The position numbers were made by a program, and so were the translations under genes. Positions 4,080 through 63,373 of a stretch of DNA of 64,000 bases are shown in pieces (the stretch's first letter is position 1; every line of letters starts with the position of its first letter). The stretch lies in sequence record NC_041919.1; one strand, written 5' to 3'. The notes below the pieces were generated by a model. It searched no databases, was not told the origin of the DNA, and saw only the letters and a list, made by a program, of their open reading frames with translations. Source of the stretch: Escherichia phage HP3.

Positions 4080-6137
4080 ATGGAACTTATTACAGAATTA
4101 TTTGACGGCGCTTCGGCGCCGGTTGTTAACTTAAATCCTAAGCATAAAATACCACAAATTTTTGCTATTCAAGCCGGCGAAGAAAGCGTGCTTCCTGGAT
4201 TTAGATTTTGTACATACACCTCTGGTGGTGATACGAATAAAAACGTTAAGCCAGGCGATAAAATGATGCATATCGTAATGATAGGTGTTAATGAGAAACT
4301 ATCATTAGTTAAGCTTAAAAACTTGGGTGGAAATCCAATTGGTGTCATTAATGCCGTTTTTGATACTGCTCTTCAAACAATGAAACAGTATAAAATCGAC
4401 GCATGCCTATTCCGCGTACTAAAAAGTAAAACAAATGGCGCAGCTCGTCAAATGCAAGTTATTGCTGACCGTTTAGTACGTACTAAAGGAGCAGGTCGAT
4501 ATGTTCTTTTAAAGGAAATCTGGGACTATGATAAGAAATATGCATATATTATGGTTTACCGTAAAAATGCCAATTTAGAAGACATTCCAGGTGTACCTCC
4601 TATTTCAACTGAGTTATTCACAAAAGTTGAATCAAAGGTCGGTGATGTTTATGTAGACGTTAAAACAGGAAATGCTGTTCCTAAAGCTGTTGCTGTTGCT
4701 GCTTCTATTGCTTTAGAAAATGATAAGCGCACGGACCAAGCTGTTATTCAGAAAACTAAAATTAGTCGTCGATTAGCAGCACAAGCTCAATATTCTACTG
4801 TTGATGCTTCACTTCAGGGTGATAGCTTCGCTGCTAAGAAATATCAAGAGTTTGAATCTAAAGTTCCGGTATATAAAGCAGAAGGACCAATGAACTCTGG
4901 CGTTATTCAGATTGGTTCAAACTTCAGCAAAGGAGCTATCGGTGGTATGAGAAGTGCTTCTCGTTTTAAATCTAACGATTATGAACTAGAAAGCTTCCGA
5001 AATCATATTGCATTAGCCCATGCACGTTTACGTGATCCATCTATCAAGTTGCAGAGCGATATAACATATCAAGGTTCTCAAGAATATTTAAAGAATAAAG
5101 AATTCTTTGATTATAAAACTGATAAAATTTTAAGCGATCTTGCTGATATTAATATTTCTAATAGCTTTGATGTTATTAAGAAAATTATTAATGATTTAGT
5201 TAAAGGTTCTAAAACCACACCAGATGAAAAGACAGCTATTATTCAATTTGTAATGAATGGCATTTATAAATTGATTAATGAATCTGCTGCCCAGGCATAT
5301 GAATACGCAAGCACCGAAGTAGCTCCAAAAGGACTGACTCAGGCTGAATCTGATGTAATTGAAGATTATTGTGCAGATTCATATGTTGAAATGAACTCGT
5401 TCCTTTTGGGTAAACCAGATTCTACCCGTGAAGAATACATGGAACGAGCTATTAAGCACATCGAGACGTTAGATTCTGCCTTTGCCAAAGGATCAGTTCT
5501 TCCTCCAGGAACTACACTTTACCGTGGGCAAGAAGTTACCTTTAAAACTTTGCGTCATAACATTGAAAATAAAATGTTCTATTTCAAGAACTTCGTATCC
5601 ACATCGCTTAAACCAAATATCTTCGGTGAGCATGGTAAAAACTATATGGCTCTAGATGATTCCGGCGCAGTATTTTCTGGTGAAGGAGAAGGTTCCGTTG
5701 ATGCAGAAGATTTGATGCATATGGGTAGTCATTCTACATATGCTAATGAAGATGCAGAAACTAGCGTGGGTATGGTAATTAAAGGAGCTGAGCGAATCAA
5801 AGTTATCGTTCCAGGTCATTTATCAGGATTTCCATCAGAAGCTGAAGTTATTCTACCACGTGGAATTTTACTGAAGATTAATAAAGTAAGTACGTACTTT
5901 ATGAAAGAAACTGCTTATAACAAGTATCTAATCGAAGGTACAATCGTTCCTCCTTCTGAACAATTAGAAGAATCAGTATATGATGGAGACCATCTAATGG
6001 AAACTGGTGAAGTTCGTCCAATGGCTGGATTTAATCAATTCCTTGTAGAAGAATCAAAAGAAGAGGAAAATGAAGTTTCTCAAATCTTGACTTCTTTGGT
6101 TAACATCAACGGAATGTCTAAAAAGTTCAAAATGTAG
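4080..6137 (+). CDS. Alt-family ADP-ribosyltransferase paralog (copy 2), divergent central and C-terminal regions
   Basis: 685 aa; N-terminal ~200 aa clearly homologous to copy 1 (MELITELFD, CTYTSGGDTNK, KMMHIV, QYKIDAC, GRYVLLKE-WDYDKKYAYI, LEDIPGVP-ISTELFTKVESKVGDVY); retains LYRGQ, FVSTSL, EVILPRG; no late promoter of its own, only 3 nt from copy 1 stop. Confidence 0.8.
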   Translation: MELITELFDGASAPVVNLNPKHKIPQIFAIQAGEESVLPGFRFCTYTSGGDTNKNVKPGDKMMHIVMIGVNEKLSLVKLKNLGGNPIGVINAVFDTALQTMKQYKIDACLFRVLKSKTNGAARQMQVIADRLVRTKGAGRYVLLKEIWDYDKKYAYIMVYRKNANLEDIPGVPPISTELFTKVESKVGDVYVDVKTGNAVPKAVAVAASIALENDKRTDQAVIQKTKISRRLAAQAQYSTVDASLQGDSFAAKKYQEFESKVPVYKAEGPMNSGVIQIGSNFSKGAIGGMRSASRFKSNDYELESFRNHIALAHARLRDPSIKLQSDITYQGSQEYLKNKEFFDYKTDKILSDLADINISNSFDVIKKIINDLVKGSKTTPDEKTAIIQFVMNGIYKLINESAAQAYEYASTEVAPKGLTQAESDVIEDYCADSYVEMNSFLLGKPDSTREEYMERAIKHIETLDSAFAKGSVLPPGTTLYRGQEVTFKTLRHNIENKMFYFKNFVSTSLKPNIFGEHGKNYMALDDSGAVFSGEGEGSVDAEDLMHMGSHSTYANEDAETSVGMVIKGAERIKVIVPGHLSGFPSEAEVILPRGILLKINKVSTYFMKETAYNKYLIEGTIVPPSEQLEESVYDGDHLMETGEVRPMAGFNQFLVEESKEEENEVSQILTSLVNINGMSKKFKM

Positions 6138-6197
6138 TTTACAAGTTCCTTATGTTGTGTTATAGTAGTCTTACTGACATAACATGAGGAACACAAA

Positions 6198-6488
6198 ATG
6201 AAATCTTCTTTGCGCTTTTTAGGTCAAGAACTTGTAGTTGAAGGCGTTATTCCTGCTGATAATGCTTTTAATGAAGCAGTTTACGATGAATTTATTAAAA
6301 TTTTTGGAACAGATAAAAAGTTCGGAATTTTTCCTTCTGAAAATTTTTCAAAGCCAGAACAGACTGAAAGCATTTTCCAAGGTGTAGTAACAGGTAAATT
6401 TGAGTCAGAAGCTCCGGTAAAAATTGAAGTTTATATTGAAGACAGTTTAGTTGCTTCAGTTGCTGCTTTTATTTCATTCCGTAAATAA
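6198..6488 (+). CDS. hypothetical small protein downstream of the alt pair
   Basis: 96-aa ORF with a purine-rich RBS (acatgaggaacacaaaATG). Confidence 0.5.
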   Translation: MKSSLRFLGQELVVEGVIPADNAFNEAVYDEFIKIFGTDKKFGIFPSENFSKPEQTESIFQGVVTGKFESEAPVKIEVYIEDSLVASVAAFISFRK

Positions 6489-53612: not shown

Positions 53613-54297
<685 letters not shown>

Positions 54298-54309
54298 TTT
54301 CACAAAGTT

Positions 54310-54339
54310 GTTTACATACTGATGAGGTAGTGATACTAT
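54310..54339 (+). promoter_or_regulatory. sigma70/T4 early-type promoter (GTTTACA, 17 nt, TACTAT) with -10 inside an inverted repeat
   Basis: gtttaca at 54310-54316 and tactat at 54334-54339; flanked by inverted repeat gatgaggta / tacctcatc. Confidence 0.55.
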
Positions 54340-54370
54340 TACCTCATCAAAATTAATTAGGAAAATAAAA

Positions 54371-54628
54371 ATGAAAACTTTCAAAGAGTTTGCTACAAAA
54401 ACTACTATCACTGAATCTTCCCACGGTATGGAAGTAAAGCTTGGAATGGCTTTAGCTGAAGCTGAGCGTCTTTTCTCTCGTATTAAAGAACTTGCTGCTG
54501 CGGTCGATCCTTCATCTTTTAAAGGAGACCAAACTAAAGTTAAAGCACTTTTAGCATTATGCTCCGATGCAGGAGAAATTGCTAAAAATGGTTCTAAGAT
54601 GAAGAAACGATTAGAAGATTTAAAATAA
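54371..54628 (+). CDS. internal-protein-like gene with N-terminal capsid targeting sequence
   Basis: 85 aa; N-terminus MKTFKEFATKTTITE resembles the T4 IP capsid targeting sequence (MKTYQEFIAE) with a gp21-type L/I-x-E site; RBS aggaaa. Confidence 0.6.
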   Translation: MKTFKEFATKTTITESSHGMEVKLGMALAEAERLFSRIKELAAAVDPSSFKGDQTKVKALLALCSDAGEIAKNGSKMKKRLEDLK

Positions 54629-54640
54629 TTTCACAAAGTT

Positions 54641-54670
54641 GTTTACATAGGGTTTTAGTTGTGATACTAT
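54641..54670 (+). promoter_or_regulatory. sigma70/T4 early-type promoter, second copy of the cassette
   Basis: tcacaaagttgtttacata ... gtgatactatta nearly identical to the copy at 54301; inverted repeat atagggt / accctat around the -10. Confidence 0.55.
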
Positions 54671-54704
54671 TACCCTATCAAAACAAAACCAAATGGAAAT
54701 CAAA

Positions 54705-54938
54705 ATGAAAACTTACCAAGAATTTATTGCTGAAACTGCTGATGTAAAAGTTGAGTTTATTTACATTGGCAAGAAAGATAAAATGGGTGAAATGCCTCAT
54801 GGAGTTCTTCGTGATGCATTAGATAATTTCGGTCAACTCGCCGCAGAAGATTACGGTGATAAAATTGTTGTTACTGGTCCTGCTGCAGTTATTGAAAAAT
54901 GGGCAGCAGAAAATAAATCAATTTTTCGTAAAAAATAA
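54705..54938 (+). CDS. internal-protein-like gene with canonical capsid targeting sequence
   Basis: N-terminus MKTYQEFIAE is identical to the T4 internal protein CTS; the track ORF begins 4 codons upstream (54693); 77 aa. Confidence 0.65.
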   Translation: MKTYQEFIAETADVKVEFIYIGKKDKMGEMPHGVLRDALDNFGQLAAEDYGDKIVVTGPAAVIEKWAAENKSIFRKK

Positions 54939-54968
54939 GTTTACTTTTAGATAGGGTAGTGATACTAT
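54939..54968 (+). promoter_or_regulatory. sigma70/T4 early-type promoter, third copy
   Basis: gtttac ... gtgatactatta with inverted repeat agatagggta / taccctatct. Confidence 0.5.
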
Positions 54969-54996
54969 TACCCTATCTACTACTGAGGAGAATAAA

Positions 54997-55182
54997 ATGA
55001 AACGTTGTGAATTAATTCGAAATGTTGCTATTGCAATTTCTGCTTCCGCTTTTAGTTTTTCAATGTTTGTTGGATTTATATGTGGATTATTGACTACAGC
55101 AGAAAATGTGTTTTCACTTGTAGTAGCATTTTTAATTGGTTTAATTGCTATTGTTATGGATAAAATTTCTAAAGGTGAATAA
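54997..55182 (+). CDS. small hydrophobic membrane protein
   Basis: 61 aa with two hydrophobic helices; RBS gaggag. Confidence 0.5.
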   Translation: MKRCELIRNVAIAISASAFSFSMFVGFICGLLTTAENVFSLVVAFLIGLIAIVMDKISKGE

Positions 55183-55580
55183 TGAACGTTGAATATTATG
55201 TATATGCGGATTACGAAAATAATCCGTCTAAAGATGAAGATAATCGTTTAGGTGTAGATGCTTTCGATTCCCCTGCGGCGGCATGGCAATGGGTTGAAAG
55301 AACCGATATTCCTTACCGTTATATTGAAGTGGTTGACCACGCAGGAAACAAGTATCCTAAGGAAGCATATGTTGCTTCCGGGAAGGTAAATTTCCTTTTG
55401 TTTGCAGGTGATAATTATTATCCCCGTGGTGGGTATACCGATTTAATTGCTAAAGCATTCTCTGAAGATGAACTCCGTGACATTATCAAAGAAAATGAAA
55501 ACAAACCGATGGATTCTAATCGCTTTGATTGGTGGCAAATCGTAAATGCTAATACTCACACTATTGTTGATGAAGGCTGA
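55182..55580 (+). CDS. hypothetical protein
   Basis: 132-aa ORF, ATGA-coupled to the upstream gene. Confidence 0.5.
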   Translation: MNVEYYVYADYENNPSKDEDNRLGVDAFDSPAAAWQWVERTDIPYRYIEVVDHAGNKYPKEAYVASGKVNFLLFAGDNYYPRGGYTDLIAKAFSEDELRDIIKENENKPMDSNRFDWWQIVNANTHTIVDEG

Positions 55581-55582
55581 TA

Positions 55583-55870
55583 ATGATTCTTTATGCGAAA
55601 GTATCATCCATTGAAAATGGATATAAATATGATCAAGACGCGGCTAAAGCTTTGATTGATGATTATGGCATTTTAACATGTTTTGAAGTTGAAAAGGTTT
55701 ACATTGACCGTTCATCTTCTCAAGTTAAATTAGTGAAGGAAGAACGTAAATTTAATACAGTAAATTTTGATTTCTTTATTGAAACAGAAAAAGGTCCTCT
55801 TGAATATGATATTTTCAAGAATCCTTTGGGTCTTGAATGCATCGTAAATATGTATTATTATAAATGGTAA
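55583..55870 (+). CDS. hypothetical protein
   Basis: 95-aa ORF. Confidence 0.45.
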   Translation: MILYAKVSSIENGYKYDQDAAKALIDDYGILTCFEVEKVYIDRSSSQVKLVKEERKFNTVNFDFFIETEKGPLEYDIFKNPLGLECIVNMYYYKW

Positions 55871-55967
55871 ATATGCTTTAAGAATTATTTGTTATTATTA
55901 ACTCATATCGCACTGATTAATACCCTCTATCATCAAGGGTTCTTGCTTAAGAGCCTTTGTTAATAAT

Positions 55968-56040
55968 TGGGAATTAGCCAAGTTGGTAAGGCACTGGATT
56001 TTGATTCCAGGATGCAAAGGTTCGAGTCCTTTATTCCCAG
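55968..56040 (+). tRNA. tRNA-Gln (anticodon TTG)
   Basis: cloverleaf read by eye: acceptor tgggaat/attccca, anticodon loop ttTTGat, T-loop ttcgagt. Confidence 0.8.
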
Positions 56041-58933: not shown

Positions 58934-59056
58934 GGTATCTAGGCCTTTCTGGACCTCTCTAGGCATCATTTAGTTTATACCCTTTATAATATATTATCCT
59001 ATCCTTTAATTGCCCATCCCTGCCCTAGAATTCCCTAAAAATTTTTTCACAAAACT

Positions 59057-59086
59057 GTTTACATCTCTGTTCTTCCATGGTACTAT
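59057..59086 (+). promoter_or_regulatory. sigma70/T4 early-type promoter (GTTTACA, 17 nt, TGGTACTAT)
   Basis: tcacaaaactgtttacat ... ggtactatac, same cassette family as 54310 and 54641. Confidence 0.5.
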
Positions 59087-59129
59087 ACAACTATCAACTA
59101 CTGATACAGAAAACAACTTGGAGAATGAA

Positions 59130-62901: not shown

Positions 62902-62931
62902 GTTTACTTTCTCCTAGAATTGTGATAGTAT
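62902..62931 (+). promoter_or_regulatory. sigma70/T4 early-type promoter upstream of denV
   Basis: aagttgtttac, 18 nt, tagtat, with inverted repeat tgtga / tcaca flanking the -10. Confidence 0.45.
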
Positions 62932-62956
62932 ATTCACAGTTACTTGGAGGGATAAA

Positions 62957-63373
62957 ATGACTCGTATTAATTTGACTTTAGTATCTGAACTTGCTGATCA
63001 ACATTTAATCGCAGAATACCGTGAATTGCCGCGTGTTTTTGGTATAGTTCGTAAGCATGTGGCAAACGGTAAGCGCGTTAAAGATTTTAAAATATCTTCT
63101 AAATTTATTTTAGGTTCTGGTCATGTTACTTTCTTTTACGATAAGTTAGAATTTTTGCGAAAGCGTCAATCGGACATTATAACGGAATGCTTAAAACGCG
63201 GGTTCAGTATAAAAGATACTGAAGTTCCTGACATCAGCGATATTCCAGTAGAATGGAAAAATGATTATAATCCATGCAAATCAGCTATTAAGTTGAGTCA
63301 ACAACGACTCGATGAAAAAATTTTAATGAAGCCACACTGGTATAAGTATTACGGCAAAAATATTTACATTTAA
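62957..63373 (+). CDS. denV: endonuclease V (pyrimidine dimer DNA glycosylase)
   Basis: 138 aa, same as T4 endo V; N-terminus [29 protein letters not shown] matches recollection. Confidence 0.92.

Follow-up and report, generated by a model that had tools for sequence, protein, structure and literature searches.

Three consecutive small genes of Escherichia phage HP3 are each preceded by a promoter whose -10 element lies in the loop of a hairpin, and this hairpin is selected and co-varies across T-even phages. The segment that holds the three cassettes, positions 54298-54996 of the window (the whole 64,000-nucleotide stretch of DNA analysed), corresponds to the hypervariable internal-protein (IP) locus that follows gene 57B, an already known site of IP-gene shuffling in T-even phages, which the sequence-only reading of this DNA had overlooked. 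On balance, the cassettes are probably 'promoter-early plus stem-loop' (PeSL-like) elements of this locus, whose hairpins would mark a boundary in RNA reading through from the upstream gene. The combination of promoter and stem-loop is itself already known under the names PeSL and PeSL-like (PMC2839356, PMC4122927) and is real but ordinary; the covariation and strand-asymmetry statistics given below are additions to it, not a new entity.

Promoter cassettes of the internal-protein locus

The window is Tequatrovirus sequence with 100% identity to Escherichia phage HP3.1, and record comparison returned 777 T4-like records with matches to the region. Synteny with relatives gives the gene order 57B, IP genes, trna.4, tRNAs. 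The features discussed here, all on the + strand, are as follows.

53839-54297, +: gene 57B (Acb1 / 'RNA ligase' family), an open reading frame matching PHROG 755 (E 5e-68), with 57B/Acb1 annotation in relatives
54298-54370, +: cassette 1, intergenic, TTTACA-17-TACTAT with TG and an AT-rich upstream block
54371-54628, +: internal protein gene 1, 85 aa, MKTFKEF leader, Ip5-type (PHROG 3499 'internal head protein', E 1e-49)
54629-54704, +: cassette 2, -35 GTTTACA at 54641-54647 and -10 TACTAT at 54665-54670
54705-54938, +: internal protein gene 2, 77 aa, MKTYQEF leader (PHROG 8111 'internal virion protein', E 3e-52)
54939-54996, +: cassette 3, -35 GTTTACT at 54939-54945, -10 TACTAT at 54963-54968 and Shine-Dalgarno (SD) sequence GAGGAG at 54985-54990
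54997-55182, +: small membrane-protein gene, 61 aa, trna.4 homologue (open reading frame; PHROG 1692; synteny with T4 trna.4)
59057-59086, +: single copy of this promoter class with no inverted repeat about its -10 (fold -1.9 kcal/mol, z +0.6)
62902-62956, +: single related promoter in the e-denV interval (fold -16.2 kcal/mol, z -4.0)

PHROG assignment identifies the first two small genes as IP genes; cassette 3 serves the trna.4 homologue. Counterparts of internal protein gene 1 are annotated as ip5 in T2, PP01 and JK08, and comparison with T4, which has no internal protein gene 2 (54705-54938), reveals a cassette-bounded indel. The upstream stop codons end at 54297, 54628 and 54938 and the ATGs lie at 54371, 54705 and 54997, leaving intergenic gaps of 58-76 nt that hold the cassettes.

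All three of the tandem promoter cassettes originally described are present, and their recurring motif stands out clearly, GTTTAC-N15-20-TACTAT occurring four times in the window versus 0.04 expected from shuffles. By their motifs, the cassettes are T4-type early promoters, with GTTTAC at -35 and TGnTACTAT as an extended -10. Their pattern, TTTACA/T-17-TACTAT with TG at -15/-14, fits the published PST/T4 consensus TTTACW-N17-TAYWAT (PMC4122927). In the genome-wide early-promoter profile, GTTTAC and TGn are invariant and an A-rich stretch lies at -40 to -54; promoters were defined here by the motif plus a downstream SD/ATG because the T4 RefSeq record contains no promoter or terminator features. 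Two details of the initial description needed correction: the element had been ended at 54970 but extends to 54996, and the upstream 'tcacaaagtt' block, attributed to every copy, is common to cassettes 1 and 2 only, cassette 3 beginning directly at the preceding gene's stop codon with its -35 abutting the TAA of internal protein gene 2.

The inverted repeats are perfect and differ from copy to copy, as had been claimed, with lengths of 10, 7 and 11 bp in place of the proposed 7-10 bp. Cassette 1, which is identical to the T4 ipI promoter, has its -35 GTTTACA at 54310-54316 and its SD AGGAAA at 54359-54364; its arms, TGATGAGGTA (54320-54329) and TACCTCATCA (54340-54349), form 10 perfect base pairs round a loop that is the extended -10 GTGATACTAT (54330-54339; hexamer 54334-54339). 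The arms of cassette 2, ATAGGGT (54647-54653) and ACCCTAT (54672-54678), form 7 perfect pairs with an 18-nt loop, supplemented by weaker inner and outer pairs, the outer ones joining 54639-54644 with 54681-54686. In cassette 3, TAGATAGGGTA (54948-54958) and TACCCTATCTA (54969-54979) pair perfectly over 11 bp. As RNA, cassettes 1, 2 and 3 fold at -17.4, -18.1 and -18.5 kcal/mol (z = -6.1, -4.1 and -4.5), and none of 200 shuffles folds as well; these hairpins are far from chance.

Hairpins in the genome and across T-even phages

Absence of inverted repeats from other copies of this promoter class had been named as the sign of mere coincidence. In the whole source genome, however, 10 of the 36 early promoters have their -10 enclosed by a perfect inverted repeat of 6 bp or more, versus 1.96 expected when downstream halves are swapped among promoters (maximum 7 in 2000 permutations); this null, like the other permutation nulls used, keeps position-specific composition. 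Related single copies had been noted at 59057 and 62902; the first belongs to the same promoter class but lacks the inverted repeat, which is present at 62902. At 62902, AATTGTGA (62918-62925) pairs with TCACAGTT (62934-62941) over 8 bp including one G.U, with the -10 TAGTAT (62926-62931) inside the loop. Here an outer CUCC (62911-62914) also pairs with the denV SD GGAG (62946-62949), and opening the ribosome site costs 8.6 kcal/mol more in the read-through RNA.

Across T-even phages, a 57B-anchored search yielded 45 distinct cassette cores from 36 other T-even loci; IMG/VR scans with short patterns gave many unrelated chance matches and were set aside in favour of this set. The mean minimum free energy of the 45 cores is -9.3 kcal/mol versus -5.8±0.36 for permuted halves, and 25 of them reach -10 kcal/mol or lower, compared with 9.6% of chimeras. 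The proposal of a conserved core with co-varying stems, and of selection for the hairpin, is borne out: among 35 distinct T-even cores, compensatory changes occur at all ten pairs of the register of cassettes 1 and 3. In this register, these cores have 36 double-change cells versus 23.3±3.6 in shuffles, and 54.9% of cells are paired versus 32-42% with the partner slid, in a comparison among related sequences for which shuffle tests overstate independence. Stem geometry varies between two registers, and the pairing scheme of cassette 2 (R2) is unsupported as a general structure over the whole cassette set, applying to a subset only. Neither kind of hairpin is found in 11 of the 45 cores or at the 59057 promoter, and hybrid cassettes with mismatched arms occur at two loci (L202 and L211). 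Since such broken-stem hybrids persist in natural phages alongside hairpinless cores, the hairpin is dispensable.

Function of the hairpin and modular exchange

Under the reading that we favour, each cassette would be a T4 early promoter that depends on sigma-70, is very strong, has an AT-rich block upstream and drives one small gene. The arms of the inverted repeat occupy segments less constrained than the -35 and the extended -10, with the 5' arm in the nearly unconstrained spacer (about -26 to -17) and the 3' arm in the moderately conserved discriminator/start region (about -6 to +5), so that the constrained -10 ends up in the loop. Information content among early promoters is 0.03-0.46 bit at -29 to -17, mostly 0.6-2.0 bit at -16 to -7, 0.12-0.47 bit at -6 to -4 and about 0.55-0.8 bit at -3 to +3, which holds the greater part of the 3' arm. 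Transcripts made from a cassette's own promoter should begin within this arm, and the hairpin could therefore form only in RNA arriving from the upstream gene; a 57B read-through transcript would contain hairpin 1. In such RNA the hairpin, stable and with an AU-rich stretch behind it, may serve as a 3' structure that marks an intercistronic boundary, where polymerase reading through would be attenuated or paused and/or the cleaved message of the upstream gene would be protected. This would make every IP gene an insulated module, self-sufficient in its expression; separately, the conserved promoter core and IP leader would supply the short homologies for the swapping, insertion and deletion of IP genes. 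Across 542 phage records, BLAST homology breaks at window positions 54629, 54681, 54727 and 54939, each at the edge of a cassette or a leader, and the T4 trna.4 promoter is an exact hybrid that combines the upstream half of cassette 2 with the downstream half of cassette 3, joined inside the shared GTGATACTATTACCCTATC. From these alignments, we infer that the conserved promoter core is a crossover point for IP-gene shuffling.

An operator, an RNA processing signal and a cruciform had all been offered as functions of the repeat; the RNA-level option fits best, the operator fails and the cruciform is disfavoured. Genome-wide, the sense RNA forms spacer-leader duplexes that exceed those of the antisense RNA in strength by 2.35 kcal/mol (null 0.95±0.36), an asymmetry that comes mostly from the other hairpin geometry, in which the spacer is paired with the SD, the cassette-1/3 type contributing two G.U substitutions. 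The interior non-Watson-Crick pairs in the best helices comprise 8 G.T, no A.C and none of any other kind; intact cassette-1/3-type stems have 2 G.T and no A.C, and these two informative substitutions are too few for a test. Changes compatible with G·U pairing weakly favour an RNA hairpin that would form only in read-through transcripts.

These substitutions also bear on a DNA-level element, an unlikely alternative that nonetheless deserves to be weighed first. The inverted repeat would extrude as a hairpin or cruciform, or stall replication, and so become a recombination hot spot, for example as a T4 endonuclease VII substrate driving the shuffling, or it would modulate promoter opening under supercoiling. 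Its appeal is that the breakpoints of indels and replacements coincide exactly with the cassettes, that the 10-11 bp stems are perfect in the HP3 window, that the antisense strand folds too (-13.7 and -14.7 kcal/mol), and that Arbiol et al. (2010) speculated on the stem-loop as a possible target of recombination proteins (PMC2839356). However, the crossovers fall in the conserved core or leader, as plain homology would have it, rather than in the variable arms, and the stem geometry alternates between two registers. Furthermore, loops of 10-18 nt, such as those found here, are unfavourable for cruciform extrusion, and the in-stem substitutions are exclusively of the G.T type, never A.C, which are mismatches in DNA but pair in the sense RNA.

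The PeSL papers call the stem-loop a terminator, and a classical intrinsic (Rho-independent) terminator overlapping the next promoter would suit both its intergenic position immediately after a stop codon and the finding that one RB49 PeSL stem-loop behaved like rrnB T1 in a lacZ fusion (PMC2839356). We nevertheless consider this improbable for HP3 and reject the canonical form: a terminator scan of 53800-56000 on both strands found no site, the stems are AT-rich, and one annotated relative (G9062) has predicted terminators elsewhere in the region but none at the cassettes. No T-run follows any of the three stems, whose tails AAAATTAATT, CAAAACAAAA and CTACTGAGGA (AUCAAAA... in RNA) are not U-runs; classical termination is therefore unlikely and 'attenuation' is a conjecture. 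Our literature search found no experiment on these T-even hairpins, the sole terminator assay being that of one GC-rich RB49 stem-loop, and no genome-wide T4 3'-end or transcription start site data set for the locus.

We give similarly little credence to the view that the repeats have no function and arise incidentally from the promoter consensus and from paralogous cassettes recombining repeatedly. It would account for the semi-conserved start region CCTATC within the 3' arm, for the survival of broken-stem hybrids and for the 11 of 45 cores that lack a hairpin; against it, the composition-keeping permutation nulls are strongly exceeded and every pair shows compensatory double changes.

Masking of the downstream ribosome-binding site by the hairpin, which would leave translation to the own-promoter transcript, is very improbable for the three cassettes. 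Such masking is common at other early promoters of the genome, 13 of 36 having an opening cost more than 5 kcal/mol higher in read-through RNA, and is seen at 6137-6200 and 62902-62956, but opening the region from SD to AUG in the three cassettes costs only 1.1, 0.9 and -0.7 kcal/mol extra in read-through RNA, and SD and AUG are single-stranded in the predicted folds. Least likely of all is an operator, a palindrome to which a phage or host repressor would bind to shut off early promoters: the -10 lies at the centre of the symmetry and T4 early-promoter shut-off is said to be incompletely understood (PMC3014915), but the arms, and with them any half-site, differ among the three copies and among phages with only complementarity kept, register and loop length vary, and many early promoters lack the repeat. 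A known RNA family was likewise discarded, Rfam giving two chance-level matches (E 0.4-0.6) with scores far below gathering.

An anti-Shine-Dalgarno spacer is present in about a third of early promoters and may be less well documented. We tentatively raise the possibility that the early-promoter stem-loops represent a genome-wide design of hairpins formed by read-through RNA only, and not terminators, in which the anti-SD type silences and the IP type marks a boundary. Most early promoters may sit in such a hairpin. The anti-SD spacer just after the -35 may silence translation of the downstream gene on read-through transcripts at that third of promoters, and the hairpins of the IP locus, whose loop holds the -10, may be a non-masking variant that marks a message boundary. 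If the anti-SD reading is true, these genes are expressed essentially from their own promoters, and the question of why T4 has so many early promoters in tandem could become experimentally testable. We did not find a general early-promoter rule of this kind stated in the accessible literature, and a 2010 review of T4 RNA lists four late-promoter cases only (PMC3014915).

Relation to known systems

Internal proteins are injected anti-restriction factors, with IPI, IPII and IPIII each blocking particular enzymes of the GmrSD type (PMC12373910, PMC9391042). As joints for the swapping of such factors, the cassettes bear on host-range evolution and on the engineering of T4-like therapeutic phages. 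The element is not new, and our modest addition is quantitative evidence of hairpin selection and covariation across T-even phages, together with evidence against canonical terminators and operators and an explanation of why the -10 lies in the loop.

Inverted repeats within promoters are also found in phage N4, where the promoters of the virion RNA polymerase are small DNA hairpins (5-7 bp stem, 3-nt loop) read by a phage polymerase, and in cruciform-regulated synthetic promoters; the HP3 cassettes differ from those of N4 in being of standard sigma-70 type, with a -35 and an extended -10 and long, variable stems and loops. With intrinsic terminators and 3' stabiliser hairpins the cassettes share a stable hairpin that lies between cistrons and directly follows a stop codon, but they have no U-run and overlap a promoter, and their role as stabilisers is conjectural. 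The T4 genes e, soc, 49 and I-TevI (PMC3014915) are closer in logic, with a promoter within the 5' half of a hairpin that the long read-through RNA forms and the RNA from the internal promoter cannot. Those promoters are late, however, and the 3' arm hides the SD/AUG, whereas the ribosome site of the HP3 cassettes is open; the HP3 promoters at 6137-6200 and 62902-62956 do follow this masking logic.

The PeSLs of RB49 and phi1 likewise combine an early promoter with a stem-loop ahead of the SD and ATG of a small open reading frame, are clustered in hyperplastic regions bordering indels, and include one subclass defined by stem-loops 'overlapping the -10 box' (Arbiol 2010, PMC2839356). The HP3 cassettes have the same features, namely a putative early promoter with AT-rich upstream sequence, a stem-loop overlapping the -10 and a place in a hyperplastic region bordering indels. 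RB49 differs in its near-perfect sigma-70 consensus (TTGACA/TATAAT) and G/C-tract stems (GGGG...CCCC), and the authors call the T-even elements analogues, not homologues, of the RB49 PeSLs (PMC2839356). Terminator activity, shown for RB49 PeSL211/210, one stem-loop of which cut lacZ read-through like a strong terminator (PMC2839356), and mini-circle formation have been demonstrated for RB49/phi1 only. The concept was later extended to the PST/T4 pair with the consensus cited above (Comeau 2014, PMC4122927), and a figure legend in that paper places the PST stem-loops 'just upstream of the promoter', whereas the HP3 stems bracket the -10. The closest precedent is that of Repoila 1994, which, as described by Arbiol 2010, reported PeSL-like elements with T4 early promoters and AT-rich stems at two T-even IP loci (PMC2839356). 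These elements and the HP3 cassettes share the phage group and the locus (57B-IP-trna.4, and e-IP-denV), a T4 early promoter before each IP gene together with an AT-rich stem-loop whose size varies, the consensus TTTACW-N17-TAYWAT and the tie to IP-gene swapping, and, as far as the account in Arbiol 2010 goes, there is no essential difference between them.

Promoter cassettes of an internal-protein locus

The window derives from a T4-like phage (Tequatrovirus); its segment 53800-55600 matches Escherichia phage HP3.1 at 100% identity, with hits in 777 phage records. T-even phages have two hypervariable internal-protein (IP) loci, and the gene order 1 - 57A - 57B - two small genes - trna.4 homologue - tRNA cluster assigns the cassettes to the first of them. 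The three cassettes claimed by the sequence-only reading, each an early promoter with an inverted repeat, are present; the window contains GTTTAC-N15-20-TACTAT four times, where 0.04 occurrences are expected. The locus comprises the following features, in which the -10 always lies between the two halves (5' arm and 3' arm) of the repeat.

54298-54370, cassette 1; inverted repeat 54320-29 / 54340-49, 10 bp, perfect
54371-54628, IP gene 1, starting MKTFKEF; PHROG 'internal head protein', E 1e-49
54629-54704, cassette 2; inverted repeat 54647-53 / 54672-78, 7 bp, perfect
54705-54938, IP gene 2, starting MKTYQEF; PHROG 'internal virion protein', E 3e-52
54939-54996, cassette 3; inverted repeat 54948-58 / 54969-79, 11 bp, perfect
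54997-55182, third small gene, the trna.4 homologue

The predicted RNA folds of cassettes 1, 2 and 3 reach -17.4, -18.1 and -18.5 kcal/mol (z-scores -6.1, -4.1 and -4.5). Stems of 7-10 bp had been proposed, which holds for cassettes 1 and 2 (10 and 7 bp) but not for cassette 3 (11 bp); the element ends at 54996 rather than 54970, and the supposedly shared upstream block tcacaaagtt is common to cassettes 1 and 2 only. As for the two suggested related copies, the promoter at 62902 carries a repeat around its -10 (8 bp including one G.U), and that at 59057 has none.

The automatic ORF list starts IP gene 2 at ATG 54693 (within 54693-54707), whereas the MKTYQEF leader and the annotations of relatives favour ATG 54705. 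The read-through fold of cassette 1 contains a second, weak predicted hairpin rich in A/U and G.U (54292-54313; AAAUAAUUU/AAGUUGUUU), spanning both the -35 and the AT-rich block that precedes it. The 59057 promoter (59040-59110) shares some 60 nt of nearly identical sequence, leader included, with a second HP3.1 promoter; an entire promoter module is repeated at two dispersed sites, HP3.1 early-strand coordinates 26408 and 67730.

Selection on the hairpin

The hairpin feature is real and under selection. Early promoters were defined across the whole HP3.1 genome as TTTACN-N16-18-TANNNT followed by a Shine-Dalgarno (SD) sequence and start codon (n=36). The genome-wide search for flanking inverted repeats proposed with the sequence-only reading did not refute it: perfect repeats of at least 6 bp bracket the -10 in 10 of the 36 promoters, compared with 1.96 expected when downstream halves were swapped among promoters, which keeps position-specific composition (maximum 7 in 2000 permutations). 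Pairing between spacer and transcribed leader is likewise stronger in HP3.1 promoters, with a mean of -11.8 kcal/mol versus -7.7+-0.43 after permutation.

A comparison set was assembled from 36 T-even loci in IMG/VR, anchored on 57B, the gene upstream of cassette 1, yielding 45 distinct cassette cores downstream of it. Mean hairpin energy was -9.3 kcal/mol versus -5.8+-0.36 for permuted halves, and -10 kcal/mol or better was reached by 25/45 cores compared with 9.6% of chimeras. The arms vary widely among phages (GAGGTA/TACCTC, AGGGTA/TACCCT, AGGGCT/AGCCCT, AGGGTT/AACCCT, AGGACT/AGTCCT, GGGAT/ATCCC). Covariation was scored on an ungapped alignment of 35 cores in the pairing register of cassettes 1 and 3, where compensatory changes occur at 10/10 pairs, double-change cells number 36 versus 23.3+-3.6 shuffled (a value matched by 0/500 shuffles), and 54.9% of cells are paired versus 32-42% with the partner slid by 1-3 columns; because the sequences compared are related, these figures overstate independence, yet the direction is clear, as had been claimed for a conserved core with co-varying stems. 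The cassette 2 register is unsupported across the whole core set and is used by a subset.

A probable hairpin of read-through RNA

In the HP3.1 promoter profile, information is high at GTTTAC and from -16 to -7 (TGnTAnnnT), nearly nil in the spacer (-29 to -17), 0.12-0.47 bit from -6 to -4, and about 0.55-0.8 bit in the moderately conserved start region, CCTATCA, that follows. The 5' arm lies within the nearly free spacer and the 3' arm covers the discriminator and the start region. Because the arms fill promoter segments less constrained than the core elements, the -10 comes to lie in the loop. By the usual spacing of sigma-70 promoters, transcription would start about 7 nt past the -10, within the 3' arm; if so, RNA from the promoter itself would lack the hairpin, which could form only in transcripts reading through from upstream.

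Genome-wide, pairing in sense RNA exceeds that in antisense by 2.35 kcal/mol, versus 0.95+-0.36 in the null, and the interior non-Watson-Crick pairs of the best helices comprise eight G.T, no A.C and no others, with two such substitutions available in stems of the cassette-1/3 type (L187, GATGGGGTA/TACCCTATC; L217, equivalent to L049, TGATGAGGTA/TATCTCATCA). Stronger sense pairing and G.T-type substitutions favour a role that would be exerted at the RNA level, on the sense strand. Given this evidence and the predicted confinement to read-through RNA, we infer that the hairpin is an intercistronic boundary element. It would pause or attenuate read-through transcription, form a protective 3' hairpin beside an AU-rich stretch, or do both, leaving each IP gene as an insulated module. 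The hairpin is dispensable, since it is absent from 11/45 cores and the 59057 promoter and since hybrids with mismatched arms exist (L202, L211).

Translational masking is rejected for the cassettes: opening SD..AUG in read-through rather than own RNA differs by +1.1, +0.9 and -0.7 kcal/mol (cassettes 1-3), and SD and AUG are unpaired in the predicted folds. A canonical terminator is rejected too, a scan of both strands of 53800-56000 giving no terminator-like site. The three stems run into AAAATTAATT, CAAAACAAAA and CTACTGAGGA, and an annotated relative has predicted terminators nearby, with none marked at the cassettes. The operator suggested by the sequence-only reading fails because the arms keep complementarity, not sequence, while register and loop length vary. 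A known RNA family is rejected for the cassettes, Rfam giving only two chance-level hits (E 0.4-0.6).

Other early promoters do appear to mask the SD. In 13 of the 36 HP3.1 promoters the spacer just 3' of the -35 is complementary to the downstream gene's SD; the ribosome site is predicted to be locked in read-through RNA, costing 5-18 kcal/mol more to open, and open in the promoter's own RNA. This anti-SD arrangement recurs in 12 of the 45 cassettes from the IP loci of other T-even phages. The window provides an example.

6137-6166, early promoter; GTTTAC 6137-6142, -10 TATAGT 6161-6166
6186-6190, SD GAGGA
6198, ATG

Within 6137-6200, 6145-6161 pairs with 6176-6192 (-25.7 kcal/mol, z -6.5); in predicted folds the read-through RNA buries the SD and the promoter-started RNA is unstructured. 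A hairpin formed only in read-through RNA could conceivably be a general design of T-even early promoters, although we consider this rather unlikely. We found no statement in the literature of the anti-SD spacer as a general early-promoter property; older papers may cover the point.

Modular exchange and known elements

The T4 ipI promoter is identical to cassette 1, and the T4 trna.4 promoter is a hybrid, made of cassette 2 up to a join inside the common GTGATACTATTACCCTATC and of cassette 3 from there on; compared with T4, the gene for the 77-aa IP is therefore an indel bounded by cassettes. With 54280-55000 as query, BLAST homology across 542 phage records is interrupted at positions 350, 402, 447 and 660, recurrently among T4-like phages in a mosaic pattern. 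These correspond to 54629 (cassette 2 start), 54681 (end of its 3' arm), 54727 (end of the IP leader codons) and 54939 (cassette 3 start). The second IP locus of T4 holds ipIII and ipII, placed between the lysozyme gene e and denV, with promoters whose -10 is likewise in the loop (CCTAGAATTGTGA/TCACAATTCTAGG). Here both genes are absent and one hybrid promoter (62902-62959) joins e to denV, its -10 also in the loop and its outer CUCC (62911-62914) pairing with the denV SD GGAG (62946-62949), which looks like a cassette-bounded deletion. In one IP cassette (L202, about 5177-5260, IMG/VR contig 2706796299_000001) the -10 and 3' arm are duplicated in tandem, TACTATTACCTCATCAAGATACTATTACCTCATCAAAA, suggesting slippage or unequal exchange inside the cassette core.

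The anti-SD promoters follow the same logic as T4 e, soc, 49 and I-TevI, but those are late promoters (PMC3014915) and these early ones. The cassettes resemble PeSLs (promoter-early stem-loop elements), defined in RB49/phi1 by Arbiol et al. 2010 (PMC2839356), with stem-loop placements that include 'overlapping the -10 box'. PeSLs cluster in hyperplastic regions and border indels, and one PeSL stem-loop cut lacZ read-through, like rrnB T1 (PMC2839356); such terminator activity, and the formation of mini-circles, were shown for RB49/phi1. According to the Discussion by Arbiol et al., PeSL-like sequences had been seen already by Repoila et al. 1994 at both T-even IP loci, built on T4 early promoters and having AT-rich stem-loops that are weaker and differ in size (PMC2839356). 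Comeau et al. 2014 carried the PeSL concept over to the PST/T4 pair, where the consensus is TTTACW-N17-TAYWAT (PMC4122927). Compared at the level of sequence, the cassettes have every defining feature of a PeSL, and the finding is therefore a rediscovery: the cassette element is not new but already described.
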